Source: a virus (taxonomy: Duplodnaviria > Caudoviricetes). From it: DNA of 64,000 bases. The notes under the pieces are model-generated. The model saw only the letters and a list, made by a program, of their open reading frames with translations, did not search any database and was not told the DNA's origin. Where the stretch lies: IMG/VR virus record IMGVR_UViG_3300036845_000196, positions 1,848-65,847 of that record. One strand, given 5' to 3'. How positions within the stretch are numbered: position 1 is the stretch's first letter; each line of letters starts with the position of its first letter. The translations under genes and the position numbers were made by a program. Of this stretch, positions 5,182-55,836 are shown piece by piece.

Positions 5182-5591
5182 TTTGGTTAGCTTGGCTACC
5201 TTGGCCCTCACGCGACCGCTAGGATTTTACGGCCATAGAGACTTGCAAGGGCCACGAAAGCCAACGGTTTATCCGATACTGCAAAATCACGCGGCTGCGT
5301 TCTTTTCTTACTATGCTGTATTCAATACCGAGAAAATCCACGCGCCATTCAAAACAATCCCTCAGTGGAAGCCAGCGGATTTCAAAACCGCGGCGGTAGT
5401 ACGGCCAACCTTCGCGATCATCACGACTCCACCCAATGCGGAACGACCATGTGTTTGTCATGGTCCCAAAATCCATTCGATTAAATGCAACCCCGCACTT
5501 TTCGCCGCGCCAAAACATTTTCTCCACCCTCTATGGCCGTAAGAATCTCACAGAAAAATCGCGCGCCAAGGTAGCCAGTCTACCCAAAAAC
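5182..5591. mobile_element. Family-A inverted-repeat cassette 1 (arms 5182-5240 and 5529-5591)
   Basis: TTTGGTTAGCTTGGCTACCTTGG..TTTTACGGCCATAGAG and inverted CTCTATGGCCGTAAG..CCAAGGTAGCCAGTCTACCCAAA around one small ORF; mobility is inferred. Confidence 0.7.
5219..5518 (-). CDS. cassette cargo, Trp/Arg-rich hypothetical protein
   Basis: GGAG-AAA-ATG start beside the right arm; ends SMAVKS* inside the left arm. Confidence 0.55.
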   Translation of the reverse strand: MFWRGEKCGVAFNRMDFGTMTNTWSFRIGWSRDDREGWPYYRRGFEIRWLPLRDCFEWRVDFLGIEYSIVRKERSRVILQYRINRWLSWPLQVSMAVKS

Positions 5592-5593
5592 TT

Positions 5594-8074
5594 CTACCCC
5601 TCCGCCTCCAAATCCCCATGCCCATGAGGAATAGGCTTCACATCGGCATCCTTCGGCTCGTTCGTAAACGGCCCTCTTTCCAACTTCGATTCCTGCCCTC
5701 GACACCACGCCGACCACCCATTCCAGTCAACCCCTATTTTCCTCGCGTGCGCCCGCTCATTCGGAGTGCCGGATCGGTTATGCGCTTTGAGATAAATTTT
5801 CTTACGCTCCGGCGTCGAAGGTTCGCGCTTGTGCAGACTTTTAAATTCTCTCAGCAAGTTTTCCAAATCCTCACGCTCCGGCACCTCGTGATGCAGCAGC
5901 ACATCGTCCACGTCGACGGTCTTGCCCTTGATGTTCGCCGTCGCTGGAATGTTTTTGTTCTTATACATCGTCGCGCCGTCGATCGACATGCAGGACATCC
6001 ACGGGCCGTCGTGGGTGGCGTCGATTTTGACTGTACTCACGCCCTTAGCCGGCTTGGTCGTATCGCCGTTTTCCAGCCAGTGCTTAAAACCATCGACCGG
6101 CATTTCCGTGACATGGCCCATGCGTTCACGGCCGCGACCGTCGGAGAACGCGGCGCGATAGGTTTTGTTGACCTGTGCCCGCGATGCAAAACCGAGAAAC
6201 GCTTTGTGCTCGTCGAACTTTCTGGAGTCCGCGTTCACCTGATCGACGATGTAAACCGTGGGCGCTTTCAGATGCGGCCCGATGTAAACGTCAACGTGAT
6301 CCTTGTCCTTGCCGACGGTGCCTTTGATGTAGCCGTAGTGAGCTGGCATCTTCACCGACCACGCCTTGCCACCTTTATCCACGCCGCGCCGGTAATGACC
6401 CTTGGCGTTTTCAATGGTGATGTCGAGACCGTGAACGTGAATGTGGTCCTTGGCGTAATTGCCCGCTTTCTTCTGCGCCTCGGTCGGCTCGTGTTCGATG
6501 TTGGAGGCTTCGACGCGACCACCAGCAGCGCGCTCGGCAGCCCTCCGCTCCCAAAATTTACACACAGCCCACGGCGAGATTATTCCGCGCACAGCACTAC
6601 ATGAACTAGGCGCAACAAACATGCTGCAAGTCCCGCATCGACGCTGCCCCGTGCCCCCACGGTAGACCGCCTGCACCTTCGTCACCTTCCCCGAAACCGC
6701 GCCACCTGTCGCCATGCCTTGATCGGCAAACGGGTCGTGATCGACCGGAGTGGTGGAAAAGTGCGCGGCGTTGCCTGCAATCAGGCCGGCGATGCCGTAT
6801 TTTTTTACGATGTTGATCGTATTGGGATCGAAGACCACGAAATTACTCGTCTGCGGTTGTTTCAATTGACCGCGAAGGCTGCCGATTTTATCCTGAATAT
6901 CCTCGATATGCCTTTGGTCTACGTTGCCGTTCGGGTCGGCTCCGCCTTTGCGGAGATATTCGATGTCGGCTTGGTGGGATGCAATCTTGTTCTGAATATC
7001 GGAATCGCTTAAACGCCGCGACCCCTGATCCAGATATTTGATGCCGGGGATGCCTGCTTGGCGAAGGGCCTGTGACGAATAAGCCGGATCATGATTTCCT
7101 AATCTAAGAACGCGAGACTTATCGCCGCCGACCATCGCAAGGGATTCGTCGTATGTGTTGCCGCCTTGCTTCCATAGCGACTGCGGATTATCGCGGATCG
7201 GATAGGTATATTTCGTCATGCCACCGACAATTGAACTGCCGCTAAGGTCATCGTCGGCCAATTTCATCTTTTCCCACGTTTCCGGGGAATAGTCCGATTT
7301 TTGGGTCTTGCCAGCGAGATAATCCGCGAGGGCGCCCTTGATCTCTGGCGTGACGCCAAGCGCCTCCTGCACCTTCGGGTGCTGCTCACTCAGCGGCTTA
7401 TCCCAGTCCAAAAAATGATCGGGATCGGCGGCTATGTTGACTTCGTACATGCGACCGCGCTGCGGATCGTTCGCAATCAGATTCTTCGCTTCTTGTTCCG
7501 TTAAGCCATTCGTCTTTTCGTTTGTTTGATGTCTGCCGCCGCCGGCATATTCAACCGTATAGGTGCCATCATCCTCCCTCACCATGTATGGTTCCGGGGA
7601 TAGCGCTTTTTTATATTCCTCGCTTACCGCCGGATTCTCCGCAAAATACAATCCATGCCCGTACGCCTGGGCGCCCTCTCCGGTTCCTATCTTGGACAGG
7701 TCGAACTTGTCGAAGTCGTAGGGGGAACCGTGATAGGCGCGGATGCCTTGGGGGATAATATCTTCGGCCGCTTCCGCGATTGGTTTTAGCGCCCGCGCTT
7801 CCGGCGCCATCAACGCGGGCACCGCCCCCAGCGCGAACATCTGGGCTTCCTCTGGCGTCATATTTCCGCGTAGCGCACTCACGGCATCGTTGATTCCCAG
7901 TGCAGACCCGACACCGCCTGCGATTGTTGATGGCGCCTGCGCCATTTCGGCGGGGATGTTCTGTTGTGGGATTGTCTGGCCGGATTTTGGTGTTGGGGCG
8001 TCGGCGAACTGGGGAGTGTAGTTCACCGGCATCAGATCGTAATCGGGGGGAGTATTAAGGTTTGGGTCATCCAC
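5594..8074 (-). CDS. polyvalent protein: ART-PolyVal-like, HiPIP-like and InPase domains
   Basis: AYHGSPYDFDKFD..IGTGEGAQAYGHGLYF (ART-like); CGTCSMF..C..VRGIISPWAVCKFW (HiPIP-like); EPTEAQKKAGNY..HYGYIKGT.GKDKDHVDVY..FDEHK (InPase). Confidence 0.8.
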   Translation of the reverse strand: MDDPNLNTPPDYDLMPVNYTPQFADAPTPKSGQTIPQQNIPAEMAQAPSTIAGGVGSALGINDAVSALRGNMTPEEAQMFALGAVPALMAPEARALKPIAEAAEDIIPQGIRAYHGSPYDFDKFDLSKIGTGEGAQAYGHGLYFAENPAVSEEYKKALSPEPYMVREDDGTYTVEYAGGGRHQTNEKTNGLTEQEAKNLIANDPQRGRMYEVNIAADPDHFLDWDKPLSEQHPKVQEALGVTPEIKGALADYLAGKTQKSDYSPETWEKMKLADDDLSGSSIVGGMTKYTYPIRDNPQSLWKQGGNTYDESLAMVGGDKSRVLRLGNHDPAYSSQALRQAGIPGIKYLDQGSRRLSDSDIQNKIASHQADIEYLRKGGADPNGNVDQRHIEDIQDKIGSLRGQLKQPQTSNFVVFDPNTINIVKKYGIAGLIAGNAAHFSTTPVDHDPFADQGMATGGAVSGKVTKVQAVYRGGTGQRRCGTCSMFVAPSSCSAVRGIISPWAVCKFWERRAAERAAGGRVEASNIEHEPTEAQKKAGNYAKDHIHVHGLDITIENAKGHYRRGVDKGGKAWSVKMPAHYGYIKGTVGKDKDHVDVYIGPHLKAPTVYIVDQVNADSRKFDEHKAFLGFASRAQVNKTYRAAFSDGRGRERMGHVTEMPVDGFKHWLENGDTTKPAKGVSTVKIDATHDGPWMSCMSIDGATMYKNKNIPATANIKGKTVDVDDVLLHHEVPEREDLENLLREFKSLHKREPSTPERKKIYLKAHNRSGTPNERAHARKIGVDWNGWSAWCRGQESKLERGPFTNEPKDADVKPIPHGHGDLEAEG

Positions 8075-8255
8075 GGCCGAATGTCCTTGAACTCAGTGCG
8101 GTCACCCAACCGTCAAATATTAAACGGTTCTCTTGTGGGGTGCTTTGACGTTATGCCCTGCGTGAATCGGCGTGTGTCCTGCATAACCACCCCACAAGAG
8201 AACCGTTGACCGAGTCCGGTGCCGCTGCACCCAAAGCCTCTCGTGACCCAGAATC
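8058..8255. mobile_element. Family-B cassette with non-coding hairpin cargo (arms 8058-8105 and 8205-8255)
   Basis: AGGTTTGGGTCATCCACGG..CTCAGTGCGGTCAC and inverted GTTGACCGAGTCCGG..CTCTCGTGACCCA. Confidence 0.65.
8123..8207. repeat. perfect 20-bp inverted repeat with inner 7-bp stem
   Basis: AACGGTTCTCTTGTGGGGTG / CACCCCACAAGAGAACCGTT; inner GTTATGC / GCATAAC. Confidence 0.9.
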
Positions 8256-8266
8256 TTACCCTAATT

Positions 8267-16381: not shown

Positions 16382-16407
16382 TTTATGGGCTTTCGGTTAT
16401 GGGCATA

Positions 16408-16780
16408 AGTTTGTCTCATTCTCGCATCGTCGCGCGACAACTCAGTGCGGTCACCCACGCGAAAGTGAAACGCTGGATATATCCTTCCACATTCGCAAGC
16501 CGGCTACGAGTTGGCTTCTAGGCACGACTTCAATTTCCTCTATCGCAAACTCGCCCAACAAATTATAGCCGGTCACCGTAAATCGACAGGGATGCGCGGC
16601 CGAAGTGAGGGCAATTCCATCGCGCGGAAACACCAACGATGCCTTGATTGGCATCAGACTCGCCGCGCGCACGATTGCCGGCGCCACAACCAAACTAGCC
16701 GCAGCACCAAAAAAGAACCCGCGCCGACTGAGACTAGTTGACCGCACCGTTATCACTCCGCCCTCGTGACCCAAAACCCC
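16408..16780. mobile_element. Family-B cassette (arms 16408-16454 and 16737-16780)
   Basis: TTTGTCTCATTCTCG..CTCAGTGCGGTCAC and inverted GTTGACCGCACCGTTA..CCCTCGTGACCCAAAACC. Confidence 0.65.
16451..16774 (-). CDS. cassette cargo, twin-arginine-signal-like protein
   Basis: SRRGFFFGAAASLVVAPAIVRA; stop TGA lies in the left arm; start codon uncertain. Confidence 0.55.
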   Translation of the reverse strand: MGHEGGVITVRSTSLSRRGFFFGAAASLVVAPAIVRAASLMPIKASLVFPRDGIALTSAAHPCRFTVTGYNLLGEFAIEEIEVVPRSQLVAGLRMWKDISSVSLSRG

Positions 16781-28818: not shown

Positions 28819-28836
28819 CTTGAACCCCAGCGGGAT

Positions 28837-28884: not shown

Positions 28885-28892
28885 ACGGTGCC

Positions 28893-32586: not shown

Positions 32587-32587
32587 G

Positions 32588-34517: not shown

Positions 34518-34524
34518 TGGTCAA

Positions 34525-46261: not shown

Positions 46262-46274
46262 TCTTTGTTGTTTA

Positions 46275-46630
46275 TTTGGTTAGCTTGGCTACCTTGGCCC
46301 TCACATTGCCGCTAGGATTTTACGGCCATAGAGGCTGGAAGCGGCGGCAAAGGCATCCAATGTGTCGGCGAATAATAGTGTTCATACGAACCACCTTCGC
46401 CAATGAACACACCATCAAACACAATTTCAAATTGTCCTGAACTGTTAGCCCAACCATCGTAGCGAATAAATCTAATGCCGTAGTTCGGATCAAAACCCAA
46501 AAGCCGCTCTTTCTGCGTTTGATCCTTTGGTGCCGTGTCAATTGGTTGCCACTGATTCATTTTCTCCACCCTCTATGGCCGTAAGAATCTCACAGAATGA
46601 TCGCGCGCCAAGTTAGCCAAGCTAACCAAA
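46275..46630. mobile_element. Family-A cassette 3 (arms 46275-46333 and 46571-46630)
   Basis: Arms nearly identical to cassette 1 but cargo unrelated; lies between terS and terL. Confidence 0.72.
46312..46560 (-). CDS. cassette cargo, DUF551-like protein
   Basis: WQPIDTAPKD...PTHWMPLPPLP; ends SMAVKS* in the left arm. Confidence 0.7.
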   Translation of the reverse strand: MNQWQPIDTAPKDQTQKERLLGFDPNYGIRFIRYDGWANSSGQFEIVFDGVFIGEGGSYEHYYSPTHWMPLPPLPASMAVKS

Positions 46631-46634
46631 TCTT

Positions 46635-47437: not shown

Positions 47438-47623
47438 TCAGTCGTCAAGTTCGCCCATCAGGCGCTCGCTAAGGCGCTTGTCGGCTTCGGTGGGCTGGAC
47501 GTTGTAATGCCCGCGCGGAGCCGACTGGCGGCGGATTACAGCCCGCTGCAGCACCTTCCAACGCCGATCGTCGTCCGCGTTGCGCTCGGCTTCGGTGTAG
47601 GGCTGGGCGGAGGCGAATTTCAT
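47438..47623 (-). CDS. hypothetical protein
   Basis: Coupled ATGA overlap. Confidence 0.45.
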   Translation of the reverse strand: MKFASAQPYTEAERNADDDRRWKVLQRAVIRRQSAPRGHYNVQPTEADKRLSERLMGELDD

Positions 47624-48306
47624 GCTCGCTTGATCAGTTGGGGGCCGAACGGTAGTGGCAGTCCCTTTTTATCGACTGTCGCGGTCGCCATCACCCGCTG
47701 ATCTAGCACTCGCACTGCCATAGCGCCGCGCAAGTTCTCATCTTGAACCGCCTTGAGCATATCGGCAAGCCGCTCCGGGTCGTCAAGTACACCATCCCAC
47801 CTGGCGATTTGCTTCTGCGCCTGCATGGCCCTCATTCCAGTCGCACTGGCCAACCAGCGGGCACCTTGATCGCCAAGCCAAAACGCAGCCGCTTGTCTCG
47901 GAGTCAGAGTAATAGAAGATTCTTTTACACTTACGTTATTACCACGGCTAAGGTCTTGATTCGAGGCGTGCGATTTCAATGACTTATCGCCGCGCAAATC
48001 CCGGAGTCGCGCTGTCCGAGTCATTCGCTGGTGCGCAAATTCAAGTTGTGCCGTGATGTGGGGGTGGAAGATATGGTCGCCGTCAAATCGGAGCTTTTCC
48101 GTAAGAACCAAGCGCACGCGCCTCCACTGACGCGCGTTCATTTTGGCGACTTTCGCCAGTTTAGAGGGGTCTTTGGTCAACCTGCCGCCGTGACGCCACA
48201 GCGCCCACTTGATTCGGGTGTAAGCGCCCAGAGCCTCGGGGGTCATTTCGTCGGCGTCGAGCAGAGCCTGATCCACATCCTCGGAACGAAAGCGGGGCTT
48301 TTTCAT
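47620..48306 (-). CDS. DUF1376/YdaU-like replication protein
   Basis: DADEMTPEALGAYTRIKWALWRHGGRL..D...LAKVAKM...W. Confidence 0.7.
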   Translation of the reverse strand: MKKPRFRSEDVDQALLDADEMTPEALGAYTRIKWALWRHGGRLTKDPSKLAKVAKMNARQWRRVRLVLTEKLRFDGDHIFHPHITAQLEFAHQRMTRTARLRDLRGDKSLKSHASNQDLSRGNNVSVKESSITLTPRQAAAFWLGDQGARWLASATGMRAMQAQKQIARWDGVLDDPERLADMLKAVQDENLRGAMAVRVLDQRVMATATVDKKGLPLPFGPQLIKRA

Positions 48307-48872
48307 GATACAAAACCCAGAGCGCTCATATACTCGCTGACCCACCCCGGCCTACTCGCGTTCCTATAATCAGAGTCGGTCGTCATCTTTGATTTATTGC
48401 AGCGATCACAAAGCGGTTGCAAATTGGCGACACAATCACACCCGCCCCGCGCCAACGGCACCACATGGTCTTTGGTCGTCTCGCGGGTCCCACAACGCGC
48501 ACACCCATCAAACAAAGACACCATGACATTCCATTCGAAAGGCGTGTGTGTACCCAATTCTTGGCCCTTCAATAAACGCTCATAGCGCCGCGCGCCGGGT
48601 GTCCCGTCGTCTTTGACTGTTACGTTGCCCAGCGACGAGCATGTTGCGCGGCCGTCGATTACCTCAAAGAAACGCTTGAGCGAATCGTAAATGCTGGGGA
48701 AGTGGTCGCCAGCACGCGAGTGACGCGCAAACTCATTGGCCGGAAGCCAACCGCCGTTCAGTGTCATAGCCCATTTGAGGCGGCAAAACGCACCCAGTTC
48801 CTCGTTGGTGAGGTCATCGCTATCGGCCATTGCTGATTCGACGTGTTCCGAGCGGTAGTGCAGTTTAGTCAT
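48303..48872 (-). CDS. DUF1376-like N-terminus fused to HNH endonuclease
   Basis: DSDDLTNEELGAFCRLKW; CARCG..TKDHVVPLARGG...NLQPLCDRCNKSK. Confidence 0.8.
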   Translation of the reverse strand: MTKLHYRSEHVESAMADSDDLTNEELGAFCRLKWAMTLNGGWLPANEFARHSRAGDHFPSIYDSLKRFFEVIDGRATCSSLGNVTVKDDGTPGARRYERLLKGQELGTHTPFEWNVMVSLFDGCARCGTRETTKDHVVPLARGGCDCVANLQPLCDRCNKSKMTTDSDYRNASRPGWVSEYMSALGFVS

Positions 48873-49321
48873 TACCTTCCCCCACCAACACCGACTGTTC
48901 TGACCTTCTGCCCGTCGTCGAACTGCCCCAGTTCATCCGCACACATTTGCGCCGCCGATCCGCAGCCTGACCACATCACTTCGGATGGAAACGCAGTTGG
49001 CCAGATAACGCTGGTATCCACAATGGCGCCGAGGGTGAATCTTTCTGTCCCAGCTTTCCGCGCGTCCAGCATGGCATGAGCGAACGCCAGATTCATTTCC
49101 CGGCAGTGATCATAGGTGAAATATCCGGGGATGGTGTTGTTGTTTGGTGGCTTTTGTGGCGGCGGATTGCAGACGATACAGATGCCGTTGGTGATCCAGC
49201 TCAACGTGTTCTCTTTGGCGCAGCGTGCACAGGTTAATTGCATGTGACTCCCCTCTCCCTTATAGTAAGATTTTAGATTTATTTCATTCGCGGTCCAGTG
49301 TTTGTTCGTCGGTGCGGTCAC
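48872..49321 (-). CDS. hypothetical Zn-finger protein
   Basis: CARC and CIVC; true start may lie downstream of the repeat arm. Confidence 0.5.
   Translation of the reverse strand: MTAPTNKHWTANEINLKSYYKGEGSHMQLTCARCAKENTLSWITNGICIVCNPPPQKPPNNNTIPGYFTYDHCREMNLAFAHAMLDARKAGTERFTLGAIVDTSVIWPTAFPSEVMWSGCGSAAQMCADELGQFDDGQKVRTVGVGGGR
49276..49321 (+). repeat. degenerate solo family-B arm
   Basis: TTTCATTCGCGG..GTGCGGTCAC. Confidence 0.6.
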
Positions 49322-49355
49322 AGCGGCTCAAGCGCAATGACTGCGCGCCTCCCAC

Positions 49356-50297
49356 TCAGCCTGATTCGTTGCCCCAAGCACTCCATCCGTCCCGCGCGGG
49401 GCCGCGGCGGTTGAGTTCTATTTTTGGGAGAGTTGGAAAATACTCGTCGATCATTTCCAGAAAACATTCAGGCTTTGCCGAGTGTATGCTTTTCGGAGCA
49501 AGCACCAACGACTCCCATTGCGTACCAGGAGCCGGACAAGGCGGCGCACCGCGCGTGCCTATCAACAAGAGTTCATGCTTACCGCGCTGCCAGCGGCCTA
49601 AACTGATTCGATCTTTGCCCCAGCAATAGTTCGACTTGTATTCAAAGCCCCATGCTCGCATCACGTCGATACCGATGGCTAGGTGTTGATTCGTTACCCA
49701 AAGCCAGAGCACGCAATCCTTTGCCGCGATCGAGGCCACATCTCGCCCTGCAATAATTTCTGCCGTACTGGTCGGGTAGTGATTCGCCGCGTGCCTATCC
49801 ATGCCGGTCTCGGTGCCCCACACTTCGTCGTTCCATTCAGGGTCGGCGACAATTACTCCGAATTTCTTTTCGGGGAGAGCGCGTTGCTTTTCGCCGAGGT
49901 CTTGTTCTCGCTGTTCACGGCGGAGAAGCTTGCGGCGTTGCGCCAGTTCGCGCGCTTCCATATCGGGATTGATTGTGCCGTCTTTGATTCGCTCCGCGAA
50001 TTCGTCATCGTCCAGCTTTGTCAATTCAACAAGGCTTGAAACATGCGGCGGCAAAAACGACAAATTGGACGTATTTGAAAGTTTAGGGTCTCGGGCGATG
50101 TCCATAAGCCTCTGCGCCGTTCTTAGGCCGAACGGCAAAAGATCATCAGCCATTCGCATCCATTCGCCGTGCGCCAGATTATTCTTGGCATCGATGCAAA
50201 GCCGACCAGTCTCGATAACCGCCTCAGCCGAACGCGACCATGAAGCGCGAATCAGTCGCGCCCATTTTTCCGTTTCGGGCTGGGCGACGGCGTTCAC
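49356..50297 (-). CDS. MT-A70 family DNA adenine methyltransferase with DUF3102-like N-terminus
   Basis: FGVIVADPEW, HYPT, LWLWVT, AWGFEYKS, HELLLIGTRG, HSAKPE, WGNE; LAHGEW..RTAQRLM. Confidence 0.85.
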   Translation of the reverse strand: MNAVAQPETEKWARLIRASWSRSAEAVIETGRLCIDAKNNLAHGEWMRMADDLLPFGLRTAQRLMDIARDPKLSNTSNLSFLPPHVSSLVELTKLDDDEFAERIKDGTINPDMEARELAQRRKLLRREQREQDLGEKQRALPEKKFGVIVADPEWNDEVWGTETGMDRHAANHYPTSTAEIIAGRDVASIAAKDCVLWLWVTNQHLAIGIDVMRAWGFEYKSNYCWGKDRISLGRWQRGKHELLLIGTRGAPPCPAPGTQWESLVLAPKSIHSAKPECFLEMIDEYFPTLPKIELNRRGPARDGWSAWGNESG

Positions 50298-50674
50298 GCG
50301 GCCTTCCTCCGCTTCACCATGCTCAAACTCGCGGGCTCTAAATCAAAAATCGGCTTCCCCGCTTTCTCGAAAACCTCGATTTCAATGGCGACTCCCTTGC
50401 TCGTTTCCCATGAGGGGAGGTGCGCCACGATGAGCGAATCGCAAACGTCCATCATCGCTTGGTCGAACGGCATCCATATCGCGTGATCATGGGGATCGAT
50501 GTCGCCATGGATGGCCACCGGGTGGGTATGGGCTATCGGGCTGTAAACCTTGATGCCGGCGCGTAGAAGCTGGGCGGTCAGCTTGGAGGCAGCGATGAAT
50601 GCCGCCTCGATCCCGTCAGGAAATTTCGAATACGGCGTCGCGAGATATGCCAGCCCCACTTTGAATCCCCCCAT
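50294..50674 (-). CDS. DUF1937 family protein
   Basis: YLATPYS, VYSPIAHTHP, W..SKGVAIEI. Confidence 0.75.
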   Translation of the reverse strand: MGGFKVGLAYLATPYSKFPDGIEAAFIAASKLTAQLLRAGIKVYSPIAHTHPVAIHGDIDPHDHAIWMPFDQAMMDVCDSLIVAHLPSWETSKGVAIEIEVFEKAGKPIFDLEPASLSMVKRRKAA

Positions 50675-50686
50675 TTTGCTTTCCCC

Positions 50687-50947
50687 TCACAAACCCGTGA
50701 ATGACCCTTCCCGAATCACAGCCGGTGCATGACCCAACACCTTGATTTCCTTACATTCCAACGGCCGCAGCGTCTCAATTGCCAGCGAAAGACTGGCCGC
50801 CCGCTCCAAGATTCGCTGCATCTGTGCCTCGCGCGCCCGGACGTGTCGTTTGTCGCCCTCATGGCGTATAGCCGCGCATTGGCAGGTTTCCAGCTTGCGC
50901 ATGGCGAGGCGTAATTGGTGGGTGAGGTCGGTGATGATCTTGTCCAT
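50687..50947 (-). CDS. hypothetical protein
   Basis: Starts just beyond a family-B-like arm. Confidence 0.5.
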   Translation of the reverse strand: MDKIITDLTHQLRLAMRKLETCQCAAIRHEGDKRHVRAREAQMQRILERAASLSLAIETLRPLECKEIKVLGHAPAVIREGSFTGL

Positions 50948-50955
50948 GAAACGTC

Positions 50956-51009
50956 AGGTTTTTTGGGGTCATTTGAGGGTCTTCGCACCCGAATCACCGG
51001 GAAGGTCAT
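50956..51009 (+). repeat. family-B variant arm (GGGAAGGTCA inner box)
   Basis: AGGTTTTTTGGGGTCATTTGAGG..GGGAAGGTCA; matches the inverted arm at 55786-55836. Confidence 0.6.
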
Positions 51010-51198
51010 CCGATCGCTGCGGGCCGCGCGGGAAGCTAAAGGATGTCAGCGCCTCGACGGTCGGATCGGTGTCCGGGCCGTGCCAGCCGCCGGCGTCGAA
51101 GCCGTGGTAGAAGCCTGACATGGGGACGGAAGCAAATATGGCCCGCGCGATGTAGCGGGCGACGACGAGGGCGCAGACGATGCCGATGAGCGAGTAAG

Positions 51199-51471
51199 TC
51201 ATTGTCGCGGTTCCCCCAGCAACGCGCGGTCGCGCTGGTTCGGCCGCACGGTGGGATGGGGAAAATATTTGGTTTTGGCGCCATTCCATATTCCAGGCTT
51301 GCCTTCCTCGGGGTGTAGAACAGCGTTACGCCGCGCCGCGCGATAAGTGCTGCGAGCGCGAGGCGGCTTCGTCCGGCGCTTTAGGGATGGCTGCGGTTCT
51401 CGGATACCGGCGCGCTTGCGCATCACTCGCGCGATAGCCTCATCGTCGAGGTGTCTTTCAAGTCGTCCCAT
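51199..51471 (-). CDS. basic hypothetical protein
   Basis: GGAGG RBS; RSTYRAARRN. Confidence 0.5.
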   Translation of the reverse strand: MGRLERHLDDEAIARVMRKRAGIREPQPSLKRRTKPPRARSTYRAARRNAVLHPEEGKPGIWNGAKTKYFPHPTVRPNQRDRALLGEPRQ

Positions 51472-51958
51472 GGGTTGCCTCCATTTTGGGTGATGTTTCA
51501 CGTGAAACATGGGCCCCCGCGCGCATTTGAGTGGCAGGCGTGTTCAAAAGTTTGAAATAACCAAAAGGACTTAGGCCGACAAACTGACATCCGCGCAGCA
51601 CCACGCCGATAAGCGCAACGTCGCCGCGCTCCAGATGCCTGATTGTACCAGGAAACACCCCAAGCGCCTTCGCAGCCTGCTTCTCATTATGGCCCATAAG
51701 GTAGCGCCGCAGTCTAAAGGCCAGCGAAAACACGCCAAAATCGAAATCCGACGGTTCCGGGATAGGGTGAAGCAGCTCCGGGGTCGGGTCAAACCGGATG
51801 GCCGCGCAGATGCGCAGGAAGGCCACAGCACCGACCGGACGCGCCGCTATGGCGTTGGCCATCTGGCGGGGCGTGACGCCGGCTACGCAGGCCCAGTGTG
51901 CTACGTCGCCGATGGGATCGAGGGCGTGGGCTAAGCTGTCGCGGGGGGAGAGGGTCAT
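51458..51958 (-). CDS. tandem HTH (XRE-like) protein
   Basis: QAAKALGVFPGTIRHLERG; second HTH-like segment N-terminally. Confidence 0.6.
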   Translation of the reverse strand: MTLSPRDSLAHALDPIGDVAHWACVAGVTPRQMANAIAARPVGAVAFLRICAAIRFDPTPELLHPIPEPSDFDFGVFSLAFRLRRYLMGHNEKQAAKALGVFPGTIRHLERGDVALIGVVLRGCQFVGLSPFGYFKLLNTPATQMRAGAHVSRETSPKMEATHGTT

Positions 51959-52284
51959 TCGGCAACCTCCGTTTCCGTGAGGCGTCCCGCGATATAATCA
52001 ACGTAATGGCGACCAAACCACTCGCCGGCGAGAACCCAGTGTTTATAGCCGGGGCCGAGGCGACGTATATCAAGGCCATAAAAATCTCGCAGCGCAGCAA
52101 TCCGGCCGCCGTCATCGCGAGACCCAGTCAACCTAGATGCCGCAAGGTCAACCGGAGAACCTTTTCGAGCGTAGAAAAAATCATACATTGAACGCAACTT
52201 GGTGCCCTGCCGCGGAATAGGGTGGCGGGCAGCGTTTCGACCCATTCTGTCTGCCTTGGCTTCGGCTGCGCTTTCGGTTTTCAT
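51955..52284 (-). CDS. hypothetical protein
   Basis: GGAGG RBS; coupled to the Cro-like gene. Confidence 0.55.
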   Translation of the reverse strand: MKTESAAEAKADRMGRNAARHPIPRQGTKLRSMYDFFYARKGSPVDLAASRLTGSRDDGGRIAALRDFYGLDIRRLGPGYKHWVLAGEWFGRHYVDYIAGRLTETEVAE

Positions 52285-52493
52285 TCCGCCGCCTCCCGCG
52301 CCGGATATACGTCCGGCCGCAAAAGGTGTCGCGAAACCCCCGTAATGCGCTCGACTTGGAGCACCCGCAGCGGGGGCACGCGGTCCCACTGCATGATCGC
52401 CTCGCCGCTGATCTTGAGCCTGCGCCCAAGCGCGGTAAAGCCGCCAGCGGCCTCGACGGCGCGTTTTAGAGCTTCTTTTGGGGTTTCTGCCAT
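52281..52493 (-). CDS. Cro/YdaS-like transcriptional regulator
   Basis: ALKRAVEAAGG..ALGRRLKIS..AI.QW..VP..RV..VE..TGVSRH.LRPDVY. Confidence 0.85.
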   Translation of the reverse strand: MAETPKEALKRAVEAAGGFTALGRRLKISGEAIMQWDRVPPLRVLQVERITGVSRHLLRPDVYPAREAAE

Positions 52494-52501
52494 ATTACAT
52501 C

Positions 52502-52613
52502 CTAAGCACAAGTTAGGACAGGCTACAAGTTCCTAAGCTATACTTAAACCGCAACCCTGCCATGCACTCCTAAAGCTAAGTTTTCCTTTGCTTTCCGGCT
52601 AAGGTTCGCTTAG
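52502..52613. promoter_or_regulatory. divergent control region with four CTAAG-N5-CTTAG-like operators
   Basis: 52502 CTAAGcacaaGTTAG; 52533 CTAAGctataCTTAA; 52576 CTAAGttttcCTTTG; 52599 CTAAGgttcgCTTAG. Confidence 0.7.
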
Positions 52614-52644
52614 TGTCTGATTATCGAATTCAGGGAGACAGCAG

Positions 52645-52803
52645 ATGACCAAGCAAGACAAAATTAATTCACTCTTGGCGTGGGCGCTTTGTGGGTGCCA
52701 GATTTCCGAGAGGAACCGTACTCTTTTGTACGCGCAGTTCTCAGCCATGGCGGAGGACGAAATCGACCGCAGACTTGCGATGCAGGCGCGCCGTCGCGCT
52801 TGA
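52645..52803 (+). CDS. 52-aa first early gene, hypothetical
   Basis: GGGAG RBS; MTKQDKINSLLAWALCG..; stop TGA is the inner end of a family-B arm. Confidence 0.55.
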   Translation: MTKQDKINSLLAWALCGCQISERNRTLLYAQFSAMAEDEIDRRLAMQARRRA

Positions 52804-52842
52804 CCGCACCGTAACCACCAACCCCTCGTGAACCAAAACCTT
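52800..52842 (-). repeat. family-B arm (short-spacer type)
   Basis: TTGACCGCACCGTAA..CCCTCGTGAACCAAAACCT. Confidence 0.85.
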
Positions 52843-52859
52843 CCCTTAGGAGCCTCACA

Positions 52860-53276
52860 ATGTCCACCACCTTCACCCCCCTGCGCGGCGAGTACGATGT
52901 GTTCGAGGCGCCGACGCAAGTTGTGCCATCCAATCCGATCGCCGTGGCGCAAGCCGATATGATCGCGGAGCTGGCGCGAATTGTTGCTCCGGTTATCTCG
53001 GTGTCGCCGTCGCCGGGGCAGTTCGAGGATGTGGCCGACTATGTCGAGCGCATGGTGCGGGTGATGGATCGGTGGTTGCTGGCGGTGGGTGAGGAAGCGC
53101 AGTCGAATTCGACAACGCAGATCGACATGGGAGATTTTAAGGATAAGTTTTTCGAGGCGGTTGATGGTTTTGCAACGCACGAACTGGATCGCATCGCGCA
53201 GGATTTGGCCGACGAACATCCCGATGGGCAACGCTACTGTCCGACGCGGCGTGGGTGGTACGCGGTGGGAAGGTAG
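52860..53276 (+). CDS. acidic hypothetical protein
   Basis: AGGAG RBS. Confidence 0.6.
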   Translation: MSTTFTPLRGEYDVFEAPTQVVPSNPIAVAQADMIAELARIVAPVISVSPSPGQFEDVADYVERMVRVMDRWLLAVGEEAQSNSTTQIDMGDFKDKFFEAVDGFATHELDRIAQDLADEHPDGQRYCPTRRGWYAVGR

Positions 53277-53280
53277 GAAG

Positions 53281-53625
53281 GGTTTTGGGTAGACTGGCTA
53301 CCTTGTCCCCCACACCACCGCTAGAATTTTACGGCCATAGAGACTGAAGCAAACAACACCATGACAATCCGCCGCGAAGGAAAACGTCCGCCGGTTATTT
53401 CATGTGACGGCTGCGGCGTCGTGGCAGACAAAACAAAGTTGGAGGGCTACGCCGTATTCAACTATGCCGCCCGATGGGACGAAGCCAAAGCGGCCGGATG
53501 GACCGCGGCGAGAAAACCGGAAGGCAAGGACTGGAATCATATCTGCCCGGACTGCTCATCACGAGCCCCTATGGCCGTAAAGCCCAAGCAGGACAATCGA
53601 GAGCCAAGGTAGCCAAGCTACCGAA
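53281..53625. mobile_element. Family-A cassette 4 (arms 53281-53342 and 53567-53625)
   Basis: GGTTTTGGGTAGACTGGCTACCTTG..TTTTACGGCCATAGAG and inverted CCTATGGCCGTAAAG..CCAAGGTAGCCAAGCTACC. Confidence 0.68.
53361..53612 (+). CDS. cassette cargo, Zn-ribbon protein
   Basis: ISCDGCG..AKAAGW..HICPDC; ends PMAVK..* within the right arm. Confidence 0.65.
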   Translation: MTIRREGKRPPVISCDGCGVVADKTKLEGYAVFNYAARWDEAKAAGWTAARKPEGKDWNHICPDCSSRAPMAVKPKQDNREPR

Positions 53626-53638
53626 TAAGGAGCGTAAC

Positions 53639-54517
53639 ATGCCAGCTACCCGACACGGTTCAATCGGCTCGATGGTCGATGAGATTGTGGACCGCACCAA
53701 CCATTCTCTGTTGGCGCAAGAACACGCCCGCCGCGTGGCCGACAAGTACATCCCGGCCGTGAACCGCGACGTGACGCGCAACGACAACGCGCCGCCAAGC
53801 GGCTTCGCCATCGCACAGGCCCAGGACACCACCACCGAGGTTTCAGCGTTCCTGAAAGAGACGCCCGCCGTGACCAGCCCCGCCGAGTGCAAGCAAGGCG
53901 ACGCCTGGATTGAGCGCGTGCGAATTAACCTGCAATCAATGGAAGATGAGCGGAAGCCTCGTGTTGAGCCGCTGAACGCCCAACTCGCTGCGATCAACGA
54001 GCCCTACCGCCTGGTGCGCCAGCCGTTGGAGAAAATCTTCAACGAACTAAAGCGCCGCGTGACCGTGTTCAAGAACAAGATCGAGGCCGAGCGCGAAGCC
54101 GAAGCCGCGCGGGTGCGGCACGCCGCCGAGGAAGCCGCCCGCATCGCCGCCGAAGCTGCTGCTGCCGCCGATGATGCCGTGGCCTGCGCGGACGTTGGCG
54201 AGTGCACCGACGCGGGCGCCGCGATCTTCGAGGCCCACCAGGCCGAGCGCGAAGCCGGCAAGCTCGACCGCATGGCGTCGCGCGCCGAGAATTCCGTGTC
54301 CTATCGCAACGCCTCAATCGCTGGCGGCAAGGCGATGTCGATGCGTACCGTGACGGTCATCAATATCGCCGATCCCGTCGCCGCCGTAAAGGCACTGTGC
54401 AGCAGCGGCGTGCCGGAGAAACTTGCGACCGCCATTCGCCAGTTGTCGGTCGCCTTTGAGGAAGCCTATGGCGTGCTGCCGGACGGCGTGACCAAAACCA
54501 CAGAACGGAGAATGTAG
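53639..54517 (+). CDS. coiled-coil recombination-module protein
   Basis: AAGGAG RBS; MEDERK....PL......IN..Y pattern. Confidence 0.6.
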   Translation: MPATRHGSIGSMVDEIVDRTNHSLLAQEHARRVADKYIPAVNRDVTRNDNAPPSGFAIAQAQDTTTEVSAFLKETPAVTSPAECKQGDAWIERVRINLQSMEDERKPRVEPLNAQLAAINEPYRLVRQPLEKIFNELKRRVTVFKNKIEAEREAEAARVRHAAEEAARIAAEAAAAADDAVACADVGECTDAGAAIFEAHQAEREAGKLDRMASRAENSVSYRNASIAGGKAMSMRTVTVINIADPVAAVKALCSSGVPEKLATAIRQLSVAFEEAYGVLPDGVTKTTERRM

Positions 54518-54790
54518 GGTATCACGAGAGAACGTTCGTGGGACTGGCACCGGACTCGGTCAACGGGATACAGGGGTTTAAGATGACGCACGAAGGCGAA
54601 AGACTGGACCGCAAAATCAAACGGCTCGAACGCGATCTTGAGAAACCGATCACACCGGAATGGCGCCGCGCCACCCAAGAGGCCATCAACCACCTCAAGG
54701 CACAAAAGCATTCTTGGGAGCGGCCACACTGAGATTGGGTGACCGCACTGAGATCGTGCACCACCAGATAGAGAATGAGACCAACTAAAC
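54515..54790. mobile_element. Family-B cassette (arms 54515-54563 and 54739-54790)
   Basis: TATCACGAGAG..CCGGACTCGGTCAAC and inverted GTGACCGCACTGAG..GAGAATGAGACCAA. Confidence 0.65.
54583..54732 (+). CDS. cassette cargo, 49-aa helical protein
   Basis: MTHEGERLDRKIKRLERDL.. Confidence 0.5.
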   Translation: MTHEGERLDRKIKRLERDLEKPITPEWRRATQEAINHLKAQKHSWERPH

Positions 54791-54806
54791 TAAACAGGAG
54801 CAAGCC

Positions 54807-55274
54807 ATGAACGCCGAACACGCCACAGTGACCGTGCAATACGTCAACCAGCCCAAGGGCGCCGCAGTGTCTGGGTCGATCAAGGACGCCAACGGCGATT
54901 ACTATGGCGTGCACAAAAGCGCGCTCAATCGGTTCCAGGAAGGCGGCAAGTACGAATTCGAATTCCGCACATCGGACTCCGGTTTCCGCAATGTCGATGT
55001 CAAGACAATCCAGCCGGTCATGAACGGCGGGACGCCACGCGGCCAGTACGAGGTGCACGAGCAGCGCCAGCCGGTTGCTGCAGCACCGCAGCCGCAAGCG
55101 GTTCGGCCGACACAGTACCGCCAGCCCGTGACGCCGGCAGAAGCCAAAAGCATGTTTCGCACGTCCTGCGTGAACGCGGCCATCCAAAGCCGCCAGGTGG
55201 TGTTGACGCGCGACGGCATCGCGGCGTTGATCGTCGAGATTGACGCGGCATATGATATGGCGGCGGGCGAATGA
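54807..55274 (+). CDS. putative ssDNA-binding (OB-like) protein
   Basis: AGGAG RBS; beta-rich N-terminus. Confidence 0.5.
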   Translation: MNAEHATVTVQYVNQPKGAAVSGSIKDANGDYYGVHKSALNRFQEGGKYEFEFRTSDSGFRNVDVKTIQPVMNGGTPRGQYEVHEQRQPVAAAPQPQAVRPTQYRQPVTPAEAKSMFRTSCVNAAIQSRQVVLTRDGIAALIVEIDAAYDMAAGE

Positions 55275-55474
55275 CCGAGCGCCAAAAACAGGAAGCCCTC
55301 GACAGCATCGCCACCCGCATCGCGCGGGCCGAATACCGCGGGCTGCGTGCCACGGCGCAATCATGGCGCGAGCTTTACACGACCGTTGCATTGCGGCCGG
55401 CGGGGGAGATAGTTATGGGGACGCAGTTGTTTGGTGGGACGGTGGAAAAGGTTAGTGTCACGAGGGTTTGTTAG
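55271..55474 (+). CDS. hypothetical protein
   Basis: Coupled start; ends inside a family-B arm. Confidence 0.45.
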   Translation: MTERQKQEALDSIATRIARAEYRGLRATAQSWRELYTTVALRPAGEIVMGTQLFGGTVEKVSVTRVC

Positions 55475-55836
55475 TTTGAGCGGCCGGACTCGGTCAACGA
55501 TACACAGGGGTTCAAGATGGGCGATCACAGGCCGAAAATCACTGCCGACTTTGAAATGCACGGCCATAAAGCGCACTACGACTATGGCTGGTGCAATTGG
55601 AGTGACAATGGCGACGGGATAGATCAACGCATTGTTGATTGGTTCCGCGAACAAGTCGAGATTGCCATGAACAAATACCACGAACGAGTCCACGAGTCCC
55701 AACGTGAACAACGCCAGCGCGACGATGAACAACGGGATCGCGCGGAATTTGCGCGCCTCAAAGCAAAATTTGATACAGAGCGCAAGTGACCTTCCCAGCG
55801 CAACGGACGCGAAGGACGCCTCATGACCCAAAACCC
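55450..55836. mobile_element. Family-B cassette (arms 55450-55498 and 55786-55836)
   Basis: GTCACGAGGG..CCGGACTCGGTCAAC and inverted GTGACCTTCCC..CATGACCCAAAACC. Confidence 0.6.
55517..55789 (+). CDS. cassette cargo, hypothetical protein
   Basis: Leader GATACACAGGGGTTCAAGATG resembles GATACAGGGGTTTAAGATG of the 54583 cargo; stop TGA in the right arm. Confidence 0.6.
   Translation: MGDHRPKITADFEMHGHKAHYDYGWCNWSDNGDGIDQRIVDWFREQVEIAMNKYHERVHESQREQRQRDDEQRDRAEFARLKAKFDTERK

Follow-up and report, generated by a model that had tools for sequence, protein, structure and literature searches.

A window of 64,000 nucleotides, most of the 65.8-kb contig of a soil phage, carries small genes bracketed by repeat arms at its operon junctions. 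The question it raises is whether these arms are the ends of a non-autonomous cassette system that slots accessory genes between core genes, as an earlier note on this DNA proposed, or dispersed regulatory sites, which it named as the alternative. Repeat finding, motif scans and nhmmer arm profiles located nine bipartite arms of family A and 21 of family B in the window, together with a weak B-like match at 49276-49332 (E 0.063). The arms that the note described are real, the A arms in the number claimed and the B arms at 21 plus the weak match against a claimed 22, and all 12 of its inverted pairs were found in place (Table 1). An origin of the repeats by chance is excluded. The 11-mer of A box 2, allowing at most one mismatch, has 9 matches against 0.55 expected, none of 100 shuffles gave 9 or more, and eight of the nine matches fall inside A arms; a loose two-box B pattern has 7 matches against 0.22 expected. 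With A and B masked, self-BLAST of the genome returned no other dispersed repeats except a 127-bp end overlap.

Table 1. Cassettes, solo arms and candidate genes, in positions of the window
Feature	Position	Strand	Content and context
A cassette	5179-5591	-	Downstream arm 5179-5248, upstream arm 5520-5591; 99-aa ORFan cargo 5219-5518; flanked by 826-aa lysozyme-domain virion protein and 85-aa gene
B cassette	8057-8255	-	B2 arm 8196-8255, B3 arm 8057-8113; perfect 20-bp hairpin, then T-rich run; no gene
B cassette	16407-16777	-	B1 arm 16725-16777, B3 arm 16407-16468; possible 101-aa ORF; HNH endonuclease gene 15674-16381 directly downstream
A cassette	17498-17871	-	91-aa cargo 17527-17802; box 2 of downstream arm degenerate
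Cargo-less B2+B1 arm pair, head to head	24177-24282	-	Flanking stop and start overlap (TAATG) in G001 and G002
Solo B2 arm	28821-28886	-	Runs into GGGGTTCAAGATG of next core gene; arm also present at this junction in G001
Solo A arm, 3'-type	32525-32592	+	Outer end 3-4 nt from ATG of 63-aa gene 32329-32520, which is cargo of a B pair in G001
B cassette	35687-35969	-	B2 arm 35908-35969, B1 arm 35687-35735; 88-aa ORF; junction empty in G002
B cassette	39572-39915	-	B3 arm 39850-39915, B1 arm 39572-39616; 89-aa cargo; downstream B1 arm only in G001 and G002
Solo B2 arm	40650-40715	-	Directly 5' of 240-aa core gene; overlaps 3' end of 85-aa ORF
Solo B1 arm, 3'-type	43087-43131	+	Outer end 4 nt from portal gene ATG; no Shine-Dalgarno motif
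B3/B3 cassette after terminase	43898-44202	-	Doubtful 39-aa ORF only; ATG and first codons of next gene come from downstream arm
A cassette	46272-46632	-	82-aa DUF551 cargo 46312-46560; arms 84-92% identical to those of 5179-5591, cargos unrelated
Solo B3-like arm	50960-51023	+	
166-aa protein, weak helix-turn-helix match	51458-51958	-	Cluster in 6/6 arm-bearing genomes
Solo B1 arm, divergent early region	52797-52841	-	Outer end 18 nt from start of 52860-53276, the first rightward gene
A cassette	53281-53627	+	83-aa cargo 53361-53612 with two CxxC motifs; 61% identical counterpart within A pair of locus L132
Candidate recombination genes, shared early module	53474-55274	+	Exonuclease (PHROG 10477) and 155-aa partner
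B cassette	54519-54786	+	B2 arm 54519-54579, B3 arm 54726-54786; cargo 49-64 aa
B cassette	55448-55835	+	B2 arm 55448-55513, B3-like arm 55769-55835; 90-aa cargo with homologue lacking arms in G001; DUF968/HNH gene next
DUF968/HNH-like protein	55786-56394	+	Homologue in 6/6 genomes, each just downstream of a 3'-type arm
Tyrosine recombinase	58482-59489	+	Phage_integrase 34.7 bits, cut-off 27.1

Anatomy and placement of the arms

Each arm holds a GGTCA core twice in direct orientation, and the outer tip, TTTGG(G/T)T, is common to both families. Family B does not hold as the single family it was taken for; it splits into three subtypes that share only TTTGGGTCA.. and ..GGTCA(A/C), with a box spacing of 28 nt in some and about 38 nt in others. 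Most B pairs are heterotypic (B2+B3, B2+B1, B1+B3) and are therefore not true full-length inverted repeats; the complementarity between the arms of a pair spans 15-25 nt at box 1. The A arms come in two forms, an upstream one with a fixed ribosome site and ATG, most copies of which terminate in GAGAAAATG across genomes with different cargo, and a downstream one. A lineage of arms, ..CCGCTAGGATTTTACGG, reaches 3-4 copies in this genome only.

The claim that arms pair only within their own family is borne out, all 12 pairs within 600 bp being single-family and convergent with the TTTGG end outermost. Of 27 neighbouring arms that lie 600 bp or less apart in six genomes, 24 are likewise convergent and of one family, and none are tandem. 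The outer ends lie close to a stop on one side and a start on the other, as had been noticed by eye: 13 of 14 upstream (5'-type) arms sit at -27 to +10 nt from the preceding stop, and 15 of 16 downstream (3'-type) arms at -18 to +70 nt from the next start. The cargo is likewise as described, one small gene, a non-coding stretch or nothing, with ORFs of 82-101 aa in eight pairs and of 64 aa in 54515-54790; the remaining pairs hold the 20-bp hairpin and T-run (8058-8255), the doubtful ORF of 39 aa (43894-44202) or are empty (24173-24282). All ten cargo ORFs run with the operon, and no cargo is duplicated within the genome.

The arms also supply translation starts. The ATG of c44 is provided by a B3 arm, and its N-terminus reads MTPKT here versus MEHIPPHKP in G002. 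Shine-Dalgarno motifs are rarer after 3'-type arms (10/28 versus 313/514), a contrast that is soft because the gene caller favours such motifs. In seven of 14 A pairs, by the calls of the ORF picker, the cargo runs into box 2, always in one frame (..SMAVK..).

Turnover of cargo and conservation of arms

Comparison of junctions between related genomes indicates what is gained and lost. Empty sites do occur: the junction of c27 and c4 reads TAATG in G001 and G002 versus a 124-nt arm pair here, and that between terminase and c44 is only 21 nt in G002. Different cargo was found between the same arms at one junction, as were pairs with none. Locus L139 and G002 show 88-100% identity as far as the inner border of the upstream arm; identity resumes, at 84-96%, with the inner border of the downstream arm, and between these points the two are unalignable (26-56% per 50-nt window), the interior being a DUF5131 gene in one and a 5-hmdU DNA kinase in the other. 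Some cargo genes, among them c86, DUF5131 and the gene at 55517-55789, have arms in one genome and none elsewhere. Insertions and deletions involve entire arms or entire pairs, located between a stop and a start, single arms are gained and lost independently, and the linkers at the insertion edges vary from 3 to 9 nt. The proposal of a unit that inserts at operon junctions and leaves core genes intact is thus upheld, with arm-cargo-arm as the real unit of gain, loss and replacement. Since turnover is seen at the junctions, a picture of arms invariant in place around unchanging cargo, under which they would be regulatory sites instead of cassette ends, does not describe these genomes.

The same arms occur in five relatives and about 27 IMG/VR contigs. 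Of the 81 BLASTN matches between this phage and the five relatives that reach 80% identity, 75 overlap an arm; the alignable remainder averages about 70% identity, and the arms are the main islands of high DNA identity among these genomes. At orthologous junctions the boxes are retained and the spacers drift, for example in the B1 arm before c41 in three genomes, a pattern that suggests selection on the boxes. Some arms are fixed at orthologous junctions in three to six genomes (before c41, the DUF968 gene and c11, and after c1), and here and in four relatives an arm directly precedes the first rightward gene of the early operon, with the ATG at the arm end. G003-G005 have a different virion module and the same arms, which ties the arms to the shared early module, not to the structural one. 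Among 60 metagenome loci found through the terminase, only three had A or B matches, including a copy of the G002 region, and the nearest of the 60 (66% aa) had no arms. Several arms are thus fixed across diverged genomes, as the note expected of regulatory sites, yet cargo turnover is also seen, and both halves of the earlier choice, cassette ends and regulatory sites, seem to be true at once.

Proposed boundary elements and crossover points, and the alternatives

The interpretation we favour, at a probability of roughly 0.45, is that proteins bind the arms as boundary elements, which also provide translation starts and at which crossover takes place when cassettes are exchanged by homologous recombination. 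The arms would be conserved cis-acting boundaries belonging to an early gene module that is specific to the clade, and the two boxes of each would be recognised by at least one DNA-binding protein of the phage, for which the 166-aa protein may be a candidate (its helix-turn-helix match scores 19.7 bits, under the Pfam cut-off of 27 bits). Box 1 faces the neighbouring core gene and box 2 the accessory gene, so that the single accessory gene between two convergent arms would form an expression unit of its own within a long operon, probably an insulated one. The ribosome site and ATG of the cargo come from the upstream arm; the next core gene has its start codon against the downstream arm or within it, so that insertion would not orphan that gene. 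Since the arms are almost the sole DNA staying 80-94% identical between co-infecting relatives, they would be preferred crossover points, and cargo could be exchanged, gained or lost through homologous recombination within them. The likely agents would be the phage exonuclease system, the exonuclease and its 155-aa partner each being present in five of six arm-bearing genomes, aided by breaks from the several homing endonucleases of the genome, which encodes, besides the exonuclease, four HNH genes and one GIY-YIG endonuclease gene. The comparisons establish the anatomy of the arms, the rule of their orientation, the pattern of conservation, the provision of start codons and the replacement of cargo with breakpoints at the inner arm edges; the binding of proteins, an influence on transcription and the enzymes of recombination are proposals. 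This model does not account for the arrival of the first pair at an arm-less junction such as that of c27 and c4, nor for the single-frame reading of box 2. Moreover, homologous recombination between the two arms of a single cassette would be expected to flip its cargo, yet each of the ten cargo ORFs follows the operon.

It could be argued instead that the cassettes are true mobile elements, the arm ends being recognised by a dedicated recombinase or transposase, from the shared early module or the host, that would cut at the TTTGG tips and either mobilise arm-cargo-arm units or take up genes between arms, like an integron or a cargo-bearing MITE. Transposon ends with multiple sites are a ready comparison for repeated cores in inverted arms, and the two direct GGTCA cores, the tip shared by both families, the cargo-less pair where relatives read TAATG, the lineage multiplied in this genome only and the lack of matches to A arms in GTDB species genomes all fit such an element, as does the coding of a tyrosine recombinase and of the DUF968/HNH protein beside an arm in all six genomes. 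However, nothing demonstrates the non-autonomous transposable or integron-like system first proposed: no target-site duplication at any pair inspected, the arm-to-codon linkers being 3-9 nt, no cargo twice in the genome, no match to transposase, DDE, HUH or serine recombinase families among 70 of about 105 proteins scanned, and no clean excision or inversion joint in the reads of one DNA run. The tyrosine recombinase is full length in four of the six arm-bearing genomes and absent or fragmentary in two, lone arms come and go independently, and the L139/G002 breakpoints lie at the inner arm edges, as crossover in the arms predicts and cutting at the tips does not. Such an element is thus unlikely.

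Slightly less probable still is that the arms serve a modified host RNA polymerase as phage promoters or operators, or a repressor as roadblock sites of the kind found in temperate phages; the cassette appearance would then simply follow from control of each accessory gene at both of its ends. Arms fixed at orthologous junctions, and one directly before the first rightward early gene, are what this would predict, and about thirty intergenic sites with an integrase and a helix-turn-helix candidate recall stoperators, reportedly the dispersed, repressor-linked sites of cluster A mycobacteriophages. Against it, one type of arm is found both with and against the direction of transcription, unlike a directional promoter or a polar stoperator, seven arms are located no more than 3 kb from the early operon, box spacing varies among subtypes, no sigma-70-like geometry is seen, and neither cargo turnover nor exact swaps at arms would be expected. 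Sigma-70-like sites and intrinsic terminators in 39-58 kb were at shuffle level, with none on arms, so any transcriptional role for the arms can only be inferred. An action in RNA, where the arms of a cassette pair as a long mRNA stem that is cut by RNase III, as at the T7 processing sites, or shields the cargo, has the box-1 complementarity and the transcription of whole cassettes within long operons in its favour, and we consider it very improbable. Single arms show no excess folding (mean z over 30 arms +0.31 and +0.13 read inward, -0.63 and -0.46 read outward), arms within a pair are no more alike than between pairs, variable positions do not covary, and at the AC/CT positions of box 1 the two arms disagree in ten of the 14 A pairs. 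In addition, six of the 30 arms here stand alone, as do many in relatives, a stem would not need strict sequence conservation across genomes, and Rfam gave no match.

Comparison with known systems

Morons are independent accessory transcription units between phage core genes and are not known to be defined by shared flanking repeats. The cassettes resemble them as single accessory genes that lie between intact core genes and vary among relatives, and differ in that each has family-specific inverted arms and no evident promoter or terminator. The cassettes of integrons each have a single attC, which folds as a single-stranded hairpin, and are stacked at one attI beside intI. Promoter-less single-gene units, recombination-prone conserved ends, unrelated cargo and a tyrosine recombinase in the genome are common to both, but here there are two inverted arms that do not fold, dispersed over 50 kb, with the recombinase absent in two of six genomes. 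Mycobacteriophage mobile elements (MPME) reportedly have terminal inverted repeats, and like MITEs, as far as these are described, they share with the cassettes their ends, small size, intergenic position and many copies in a phage genome; the cassettes differ in having no target duplication, interiors all different and mostly coding, frequent solo arms, and no transposase among the scanned proteins. A survey of viral MITEs lists 99 MITE calls in IMG/VR phages assigned to Acidobacteriae UBA7540, which may or may not be this clade (PMC11602168).

The start-associated sequences SAS and ESAS of cluster K mycobacteriophages, as outlined in PMC3203893, and the stoperators are, like the arms, dispersed motifs at gene starts or short gaps, in 11-30 copies, with functions unknown or repressor-linked, and ESAS contain inverted 17-bp repeats with a variable spacer. 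In that outline, however, SAS are 13 bp, nearly all in a single orientation and at non-structural genes only, the inverted repeats of ESAS are 4-13 bp apart and enclose no gene, and neither these nor the stoperators are known to mark cargo exchange.

The closest of the known systems compared here is PeSL (promoter-early stem-loop), the regulatory cassettes of T4-type phages (PMC2839356, Arbiol et al. 2010; PMC4122927, Comeau et al. 2014). Both are intergenic repeats of ~50-70 nt that reach from the upstream stop to the next Shine-Dalgarno and start, flank small genes of unknown function and lie at breakpoints of insertion, deletion and replacement between related phages, and for both homologous recombination is proposed. 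PeSL, as characterised there, combine a sigma-70 consensus promoter with a G/C stem-loop terminator, are arranged as direct repeats, are found mainly in hyperplastic regions and are able to loop out as mini-circles. The arms, by comparison, have no sigma-70 or terminator features, form two sequence families of two boxes each, and occur throughout the operon of virion genes in an unrelated clade of podovirus-like soil phages; since they stand in convergent inverted pairs, loop-out of a circle by homologous recombination is impossible, unlike in PeSL. By analogy, the arms may be regarded as an inverted relative of the T4-type promoter-terminator cassettes.

Architecture of the arms and cassettes

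Using repeat finding, motif scans and nhmmer profiles, we located 9 arms of family A and 21 arms of family B in the window, with one extra weak B-like match. The observed motif counts were never reached in shuffled sequence, and no third dispersed repeat family was left in this genome once the A and B arms had been masked. Each arm consists of an outer box 1 and an inner box 2, is 45-70 bp long and occurs in both orientations relative to transcription. The A arm reads TTTGG(T/G)TAG(CT/AC)TGGCTACCTTGGC, then ~22 nt, then TTTTACGGCCATAGAG, and its box 1 is a short palindrome. The B arms have TTTGGGTCA.. and ..GGTCA(A/C) common to three subtypes, where B1 has a 13-nt spacer followed by ACGGTGCGGTCAA, B2 a spacer of ~20 nt (19-21) followed by CCGGACTCGGTCAAC, and B3 is marked by TCATTCGCGG and CTCAGTGCGGTCACCC. 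All 12 inverted pairs named in the earlier note are present; they have terminal inverted repeats, in family B over the shared boxes only. In this genome, every one of the 12 sets of neighbouring arms less than 600 bp apart is convergent and of a single family. Across the six genomes, i.e. this phage (G000) and five complete relatives (G001-G005), 24 of the 27 arm neighbours no more than 600 bp apart are convergent and none tandem, the three divergent cases being arms between adjacent cassettes.

At the junctions compared, the linkers between arm and flanking codon vary from 3 to 9 nt. The upstream arm, which precedes the cargo along transcription, starts mostly 0-10 nt past the preceding stop codon, and the motif spans from that stop to the downstream ribosome site and start, e.g. 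GGTGGAGAAAATG at upstream A arms. Since the upstream A arms, whose spacer is conserved, terminate in ..CCATAGAGGGTGGAGAAAATG, the start codon of the cargo belongs to the repeat; GGGGTT(C/T)AAGATG forms the end of three B2 arms. The downstream arm, between the cargo and the next core gene, is an inverted copy with the outer end ..GTGACCCAAAACC or ..GCTAACCAAA, mostly 0-19 nt from the next start, and the inverted box 1 of B3 arms (GAATGACCC) includes the start codon of the next gene. At these starts the Shine-Dalgarno motif is often absent: it precedes 10 of 28 genes after downstream arms versus 313 of 514 other genes, a contrast that is soft because the gene caller favours such motifs. For the gene following the terminase, the arm-borne ATG gives MTPKTPF-ILLSPTP in this phage, while the arm-less G002 homolog begins MEHIPPHKP-ILLSPTP after an ordinary AAGGA site. 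A leaderless-mRNA promoter was considered and rejected, as the spacer upstream of the arm-borne ATG varies.

Among the cargos, ORFs predominate. Those of the four A cassettes are mutually unrelated: two ORFans of 99 and 91 aa, a DUF551 protein of 82 aa and an 83-aa protein carrying two CxxC motifs. The B cargos are small ORFs without family, except in three B pairs that hold a hairpin with a T-run, a doubtful 39-aa ORF and nothing, respectively. All 10 cargo ORFs lie in the operon direction, none being inverted, and no cargo recurs as a cassette in the genome. In the cassettes 5179-5591 and 46272-46632 the arms are 84-92% identical, and the likeness runs from the outer tip as far as the cargo ATG at one end, and at the other end sets in again at box 2.

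Several further observations concern the cargo. The hairpin, at window 8114-8195, comprises AACGGTTCTCTTGTGGGGTG and its complement, a perfect inverted repeat of 20 bp, with TTTAATATTT after it. It makes up the whole content of a cassette between two 820-aa virion proteins and looks like a terminator carried as cargo. At window 34521-34691 an arm-less, DUF551-like small gene between core genes is 33% identical to the cargo at 46312-46560. A cargo ORFs that reach box 2 do so in one frame throughout, giving the C-terminus ..(S/P)MA(V/C)K(S/P).. (7 ORFs among the 14 A pairs of the six genomes, from those A cassettes where the ORF picker found such cargo). The DUF5131 cargo of a further contig, L139, also reads box 2 in that frame, and three other A cargos end right at the inner edge of the arm.

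Turnover at gene junctions

Comparing the same junction between core genes in different relatives shows the arms and their contents coming and going. Between c27 and c4, G001 and G002 have ..GTAATGGC.., with stop and start overlapping, where this phage has 124 nt made up of B2 and B1 arms placed head to head. The junction of terminase and c44 measures 21 nt in G002; G001 has a solo arm plus ~190 nt there, and this phage a B3/B3 pair. Between c40 and c39, this phage has 14 nt, G001 a B2-cargo-B1 unit of 440 nt, and G002 an unrelated ORF that lacks arms. Contents between portal and c42 differ among all three of these genomes; between c42 and c41 all three have the downstream B1 arm, to which this phage adds an upstream arm and cargo. 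Among G003-G005 (~81% nucleotide identity), the 10-nt AAGGATTAAA spacer of G004 between c57 and c56 is replaced by a single A arm. Moreover, a lysozyme-domain virion protein bracketed by B2 and B3 arms in G001 is missing in G002, and the 63-aa gene after a solo A arm in this phage is found elsewhere in G001 as the cargo of a B pair.

The clearest case is the junction of the methyltransferase gene c16 with c15. In G002, G003, G004 and G005 it holds an A pair whose outer flank is conserved, and in this phage only 34 nt. As cargo, G003-G005 carry DUF5131; that of G002 is a 5-hmdU DNA kinase (1.6e-45). The DUF5131 genes of this phage and G001 are at other positions, arm-less. When L139, with its DUF5131 cargo, was compared to G002 in 50-nt windows, identity was 88-100% over a stretch that starts at the end of c16 and takes in the upstream arm, fell to an unalignable 26-56% across the cargo, and returned to 84-96% from the downstream arm into c15. 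The exchanged piece is exactly that between the inner arm edges, a pattern that crossovers inside the arms would produce. The junction comparisons likewise place indel and replacement breakpoints between relatives at arms. Together with the L139 and G002 swap, they bear out the proposal of the earlier note that cassettes slot accessory genes into operon junctions; what that note held to speak against it, the same cargo arm-less in place or fixed arms without turnover, is found at a minority of sites only.

Conservation and distribution of the arms

The arms are also where the DNA of this clade is conserved. BLASTN comparisons of this genome with the five relatives gave 81 matches at 80% identity or more, of which 75 overlap an arm, and the alignable remainder averages ~70%. 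When relatives at 95-99% identity were sought, the other contigs proved to be 100% copies of G001-G005 or else distant. Orthologous junctions retain the boxes but differ in the spacer, which points, from the sequence pattern, to recognition of both boxes by a protein.

With nhmmer, G001-G005 have 2, 6, 7, 2 and 7 A arms and 19, 13, 2, 5 and 5 B arms, respectively, these counts being lower bounds: behind the G001 terminase, at least one degenerate arm escaped the profiles. Inverted pairs were found in ~14 other IMG/VR contigs with the A box-2 14-mer and a stricter two-box pattern, and the B2 pattern matched 47 stretches in ~27 IMG/VR contigs, while the A-arm pattern had no match in 185,579 GTDB species genomes. 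The virion module is common to this phage, G001 and G002 (26-95% aa), whereas G003-G005 have another virion module and only early genes in common with this phage. Of 60 metagenome loci found through the terminase, three have A or B matches, one of which duplicates the G002 region; the nearest terminase relative (L272, 66% aa) has no A or B arms, and no comparable repeat system was present in the four terminase loci inspected. Since G003-G005 share the arms and early genes only, and the terminase loci are mostly arm-less, the arms travel with the early module and not with the virion genes. All six genomes have clusters for the HTH candidate, a 74-aa protein, the DUF1937 protein and the 138-aa first rightward protein, and BLAST finds the DUF968/HNH protein in all six, each time just downstream of a downstream-type arm. 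Just upstream of its terminase, at 7485-7937, L272 has a single pair of 25-nt inverted repeats, different in sequence from the A and B arms, around ~400 bp, possibly an analogous cassette with other arms.

Genome context

The window covers bases 1848-65847 of an IMG/VR virus record that is 65,847 bp long and has a G+C content of 58%. Its leftward genes run from ~52.5 kb down to 0.9 kb and comprise replication and modification genes, small and large terminase, portal, capsid, tail fibres and large ejection proteins, while the rightward genes from 52.6 kb are early genes, the exonuclease, an integrase-like gene and methyltransferases. Scans of the whole window gave no Rfam match and no tRNA gene. 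The terminase has at most 37% aa identity to any isolate phage and megablast with 20 kb matched no isolate phage, so the phage has no close isolate and no studied relative. A 127-bp terminal direct repeat is present (1-127 and 65721-65847 of the record), and the ends of G004 have a repeat of the identical length. As two unrelated assemblies show it, we suspect that it is not a biological repeat but an overlap left by the assembly of a circular or permuted genome.

DNA-modification genes are numerous, both in window 47438-62511 and in the relatives, with the 5-hmdU DNA kinase additional in G002, and the DNA of the clade is probably hypermodified. Two of the four HNH-type endonuclease genes (15674-16381 and 55786-56394) lie directly 3' of a downstream-type arm. 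The GIY-YIG endonuclease sits inside or against a virion gene (window 24752-26363), where ORFs 25458-26363 and 24752-25501 both match one single gene of G001 and G002 (74-95% and 71-84% aa), so that this core gene looks split by insertion of the endonuclease. An ESM Atlas search with the conserved 138-aa early protein gave no usable lead.

Genes of interest in the phage genome (window coordinates)
Feature	Position	Remark
Tyrosine recombinase	58482-59489	full length in 4 of 6 genomes; missing or fragmentary in G003 and G004
Exonuclease	53474-54517	
HNH-type endonuclease genes (4)	15674-16381; 48303-48872; 55786-56394; 57592-58113	
GIY-YIG homing endonuclease	25458-26363	301-aa ORF; PHROG 314, residues 61-280
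HTH candidate	51458-51958	weak match
DUF968/HNH protein	55786-56394	
First rightward early protein	52860-53276	138 aa
MT-A70 methyltransferase	49356-50297	
DUF1937 deoxyribosyltransferase-like protein	50294-50674	
PAPS-reductase-like protein	59840-60574	
DUF5131	61052-61795	
Further methyltransferase	61819-62511	
Methyltransferase domain	within 32985-34517	

Exchange at the arms and a possible cis function

The earlier note had seen in these units a non-autonomous cassette system, loosely analogous to integron cassettes, MITEs or REPINs. Rather than transposition, our findings favour homologous exchange at the conserved arms: the breakpoints are the inner arm edges, no target-site duplication is visible at the pair flanks, read by eye, no cargo is repeated, solo arms are gained and lost, no transposase family, including Y1 transposases, was matched among the 70 of ~105 proteins scanned, and the phage encodes an exonuclease and many homing endonucleases. 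The inverted or excised forms raised in that note did not appear, nor did circle joints, in the contigs of one DNA run, the probable source, which end at the arms; the joints listed there (46296 to 46567, 53342 to 39001 and 50948 to 46275) are short-sided, or cross-matches to paralogous arms or a low-depth relative. Selection on the paired arms as an RNA stem or cruciform is unlikely, since arms within a pair are no more similar to each other than across pairs and the AC/CT positions of box 1 differ in 10 of 14 A pairs. The arms showed no fold either, with mean z scores against dinucleotide shuffles of +0.31/+0.13 inward and -0.63/-0.46 outward. As for expression signals, sigma-70-like promoters between 39000 and 58000 numbered 7 sites versus 7.1 in shuffles, none in arms, and 19 terminator-like sites between 39 and 58 kb compare with 21.8 in shuffles, again none on arms. 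A resemblance to sigma-54 sites and LexA boxes, noted by eye, was rejected because the spacing was wrong.

Homologous exchange need not be the only role of the arms. We argue that they may also have a primary cis function, exerted via a bound protein, because the orientation rule is strict, the boxes are conserved with free spacers, the arms depend on the early module and some of them are positionally stable. A convergent pair would show the same face to anything leaving or entering the cargo on either side, just the property required of an insulator or of a set of looping operators. A more elaborate pathway can be envisioned, although we think it rather improbable, where the phage carries a dedicated gene-capture system: A and B arms would be recognised by portable early-module proteins, which insert, exchange and insulate single accessory genes at the stop/start junctions of essential operons, the arm carrying the next start codon. 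The candidates for such proteins would be the DUF968/HNH protein, the 138-aa first early protein and the tyrosine recombinase.

Comparison with known systems

Phage genomes are mosaics, and according to modular theory exchange is guided by conserved linker sequences where modules meet. To our knowledge, there are few clear examples of such linkers beyond the PeSLs of T4-type phages. The uncultured soil phage clade described here shows linker-guided exchange in unusually clean form, as the arms are the only well-conserved DNA and bracket single accessory genes, and one recent swap ends precisely at them. The bracketed genes include DNA-hypermodification genes (DUF5131 and the 5-hmdU DNA kinase) and the lysozyme-domain virion protein. 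Should a regulator also bind to them, the arms would constitute a ready-made insulated expression slot, useful for phage engineering, and looking between arms would provide a handle for accessory (defence or counter-defence) genes in metagenomic phages.

Our literature searches on phage cassettes with inverted repeats, on MITEs and on dispersed phage repeats associated with starts or stops yielded no account of such an arrangement. It has one or two traits in common with each of MITEs, integron cassettes, REPINs, stoperators and SAS/ESAS, all of which fail on the defining ones. Like MITEs and IS elements, the cassettes have terminal inverted repeats (in family B, the shared boxes only), but they show neither target-site duplications at the flanks read nor near-identical full-length non-coding copies, most cargo being an ORF. 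A survey of viral MITEs mentions 99 such calls in phages of IMG/VR with an assignment to Acidobacteriae UBA7540 (PMC11602168). REPIN/RAYT systems are defined by inverted doublets of palindromic REP, abundance in the host and a RAYT gene, a set at odds with the A-arm scan of GTDB genomes and the Y1 transposase search reported here. Stoperators are short, asymmetric repressor sites in one orientation relative to transcription, while the arms are 45-70 bp, bipartite and in both. Integron cassettes have a single hairpin attC each and form a tandem array at attI beside IntI; here, each unit has two non-folding arms, and the cassettes are dispersed over 5-56 kb, apart from the tyrosine recombinase. 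The putative gene-capture system, if true, would amount to an integron counterpart that is dispersed and two-ended and works in lytic phage genomes.

The nearest described system is that of the PeSLs, which are sigma-70 promoters with stem-loops, in direct orientation and associated with mini-circles (PMC2839356, PMC4122927). The likeness lies in the stop-to-start layout, the association with ORFans and the role at indel breakpoints. The arms described here differ in having neither a sigma-70 early promoter nor a stable stem-loop terminator, and in their convergent arrangement, with no tandem neighbours, where the PeSLs are direct repeats able to give mini-circles.
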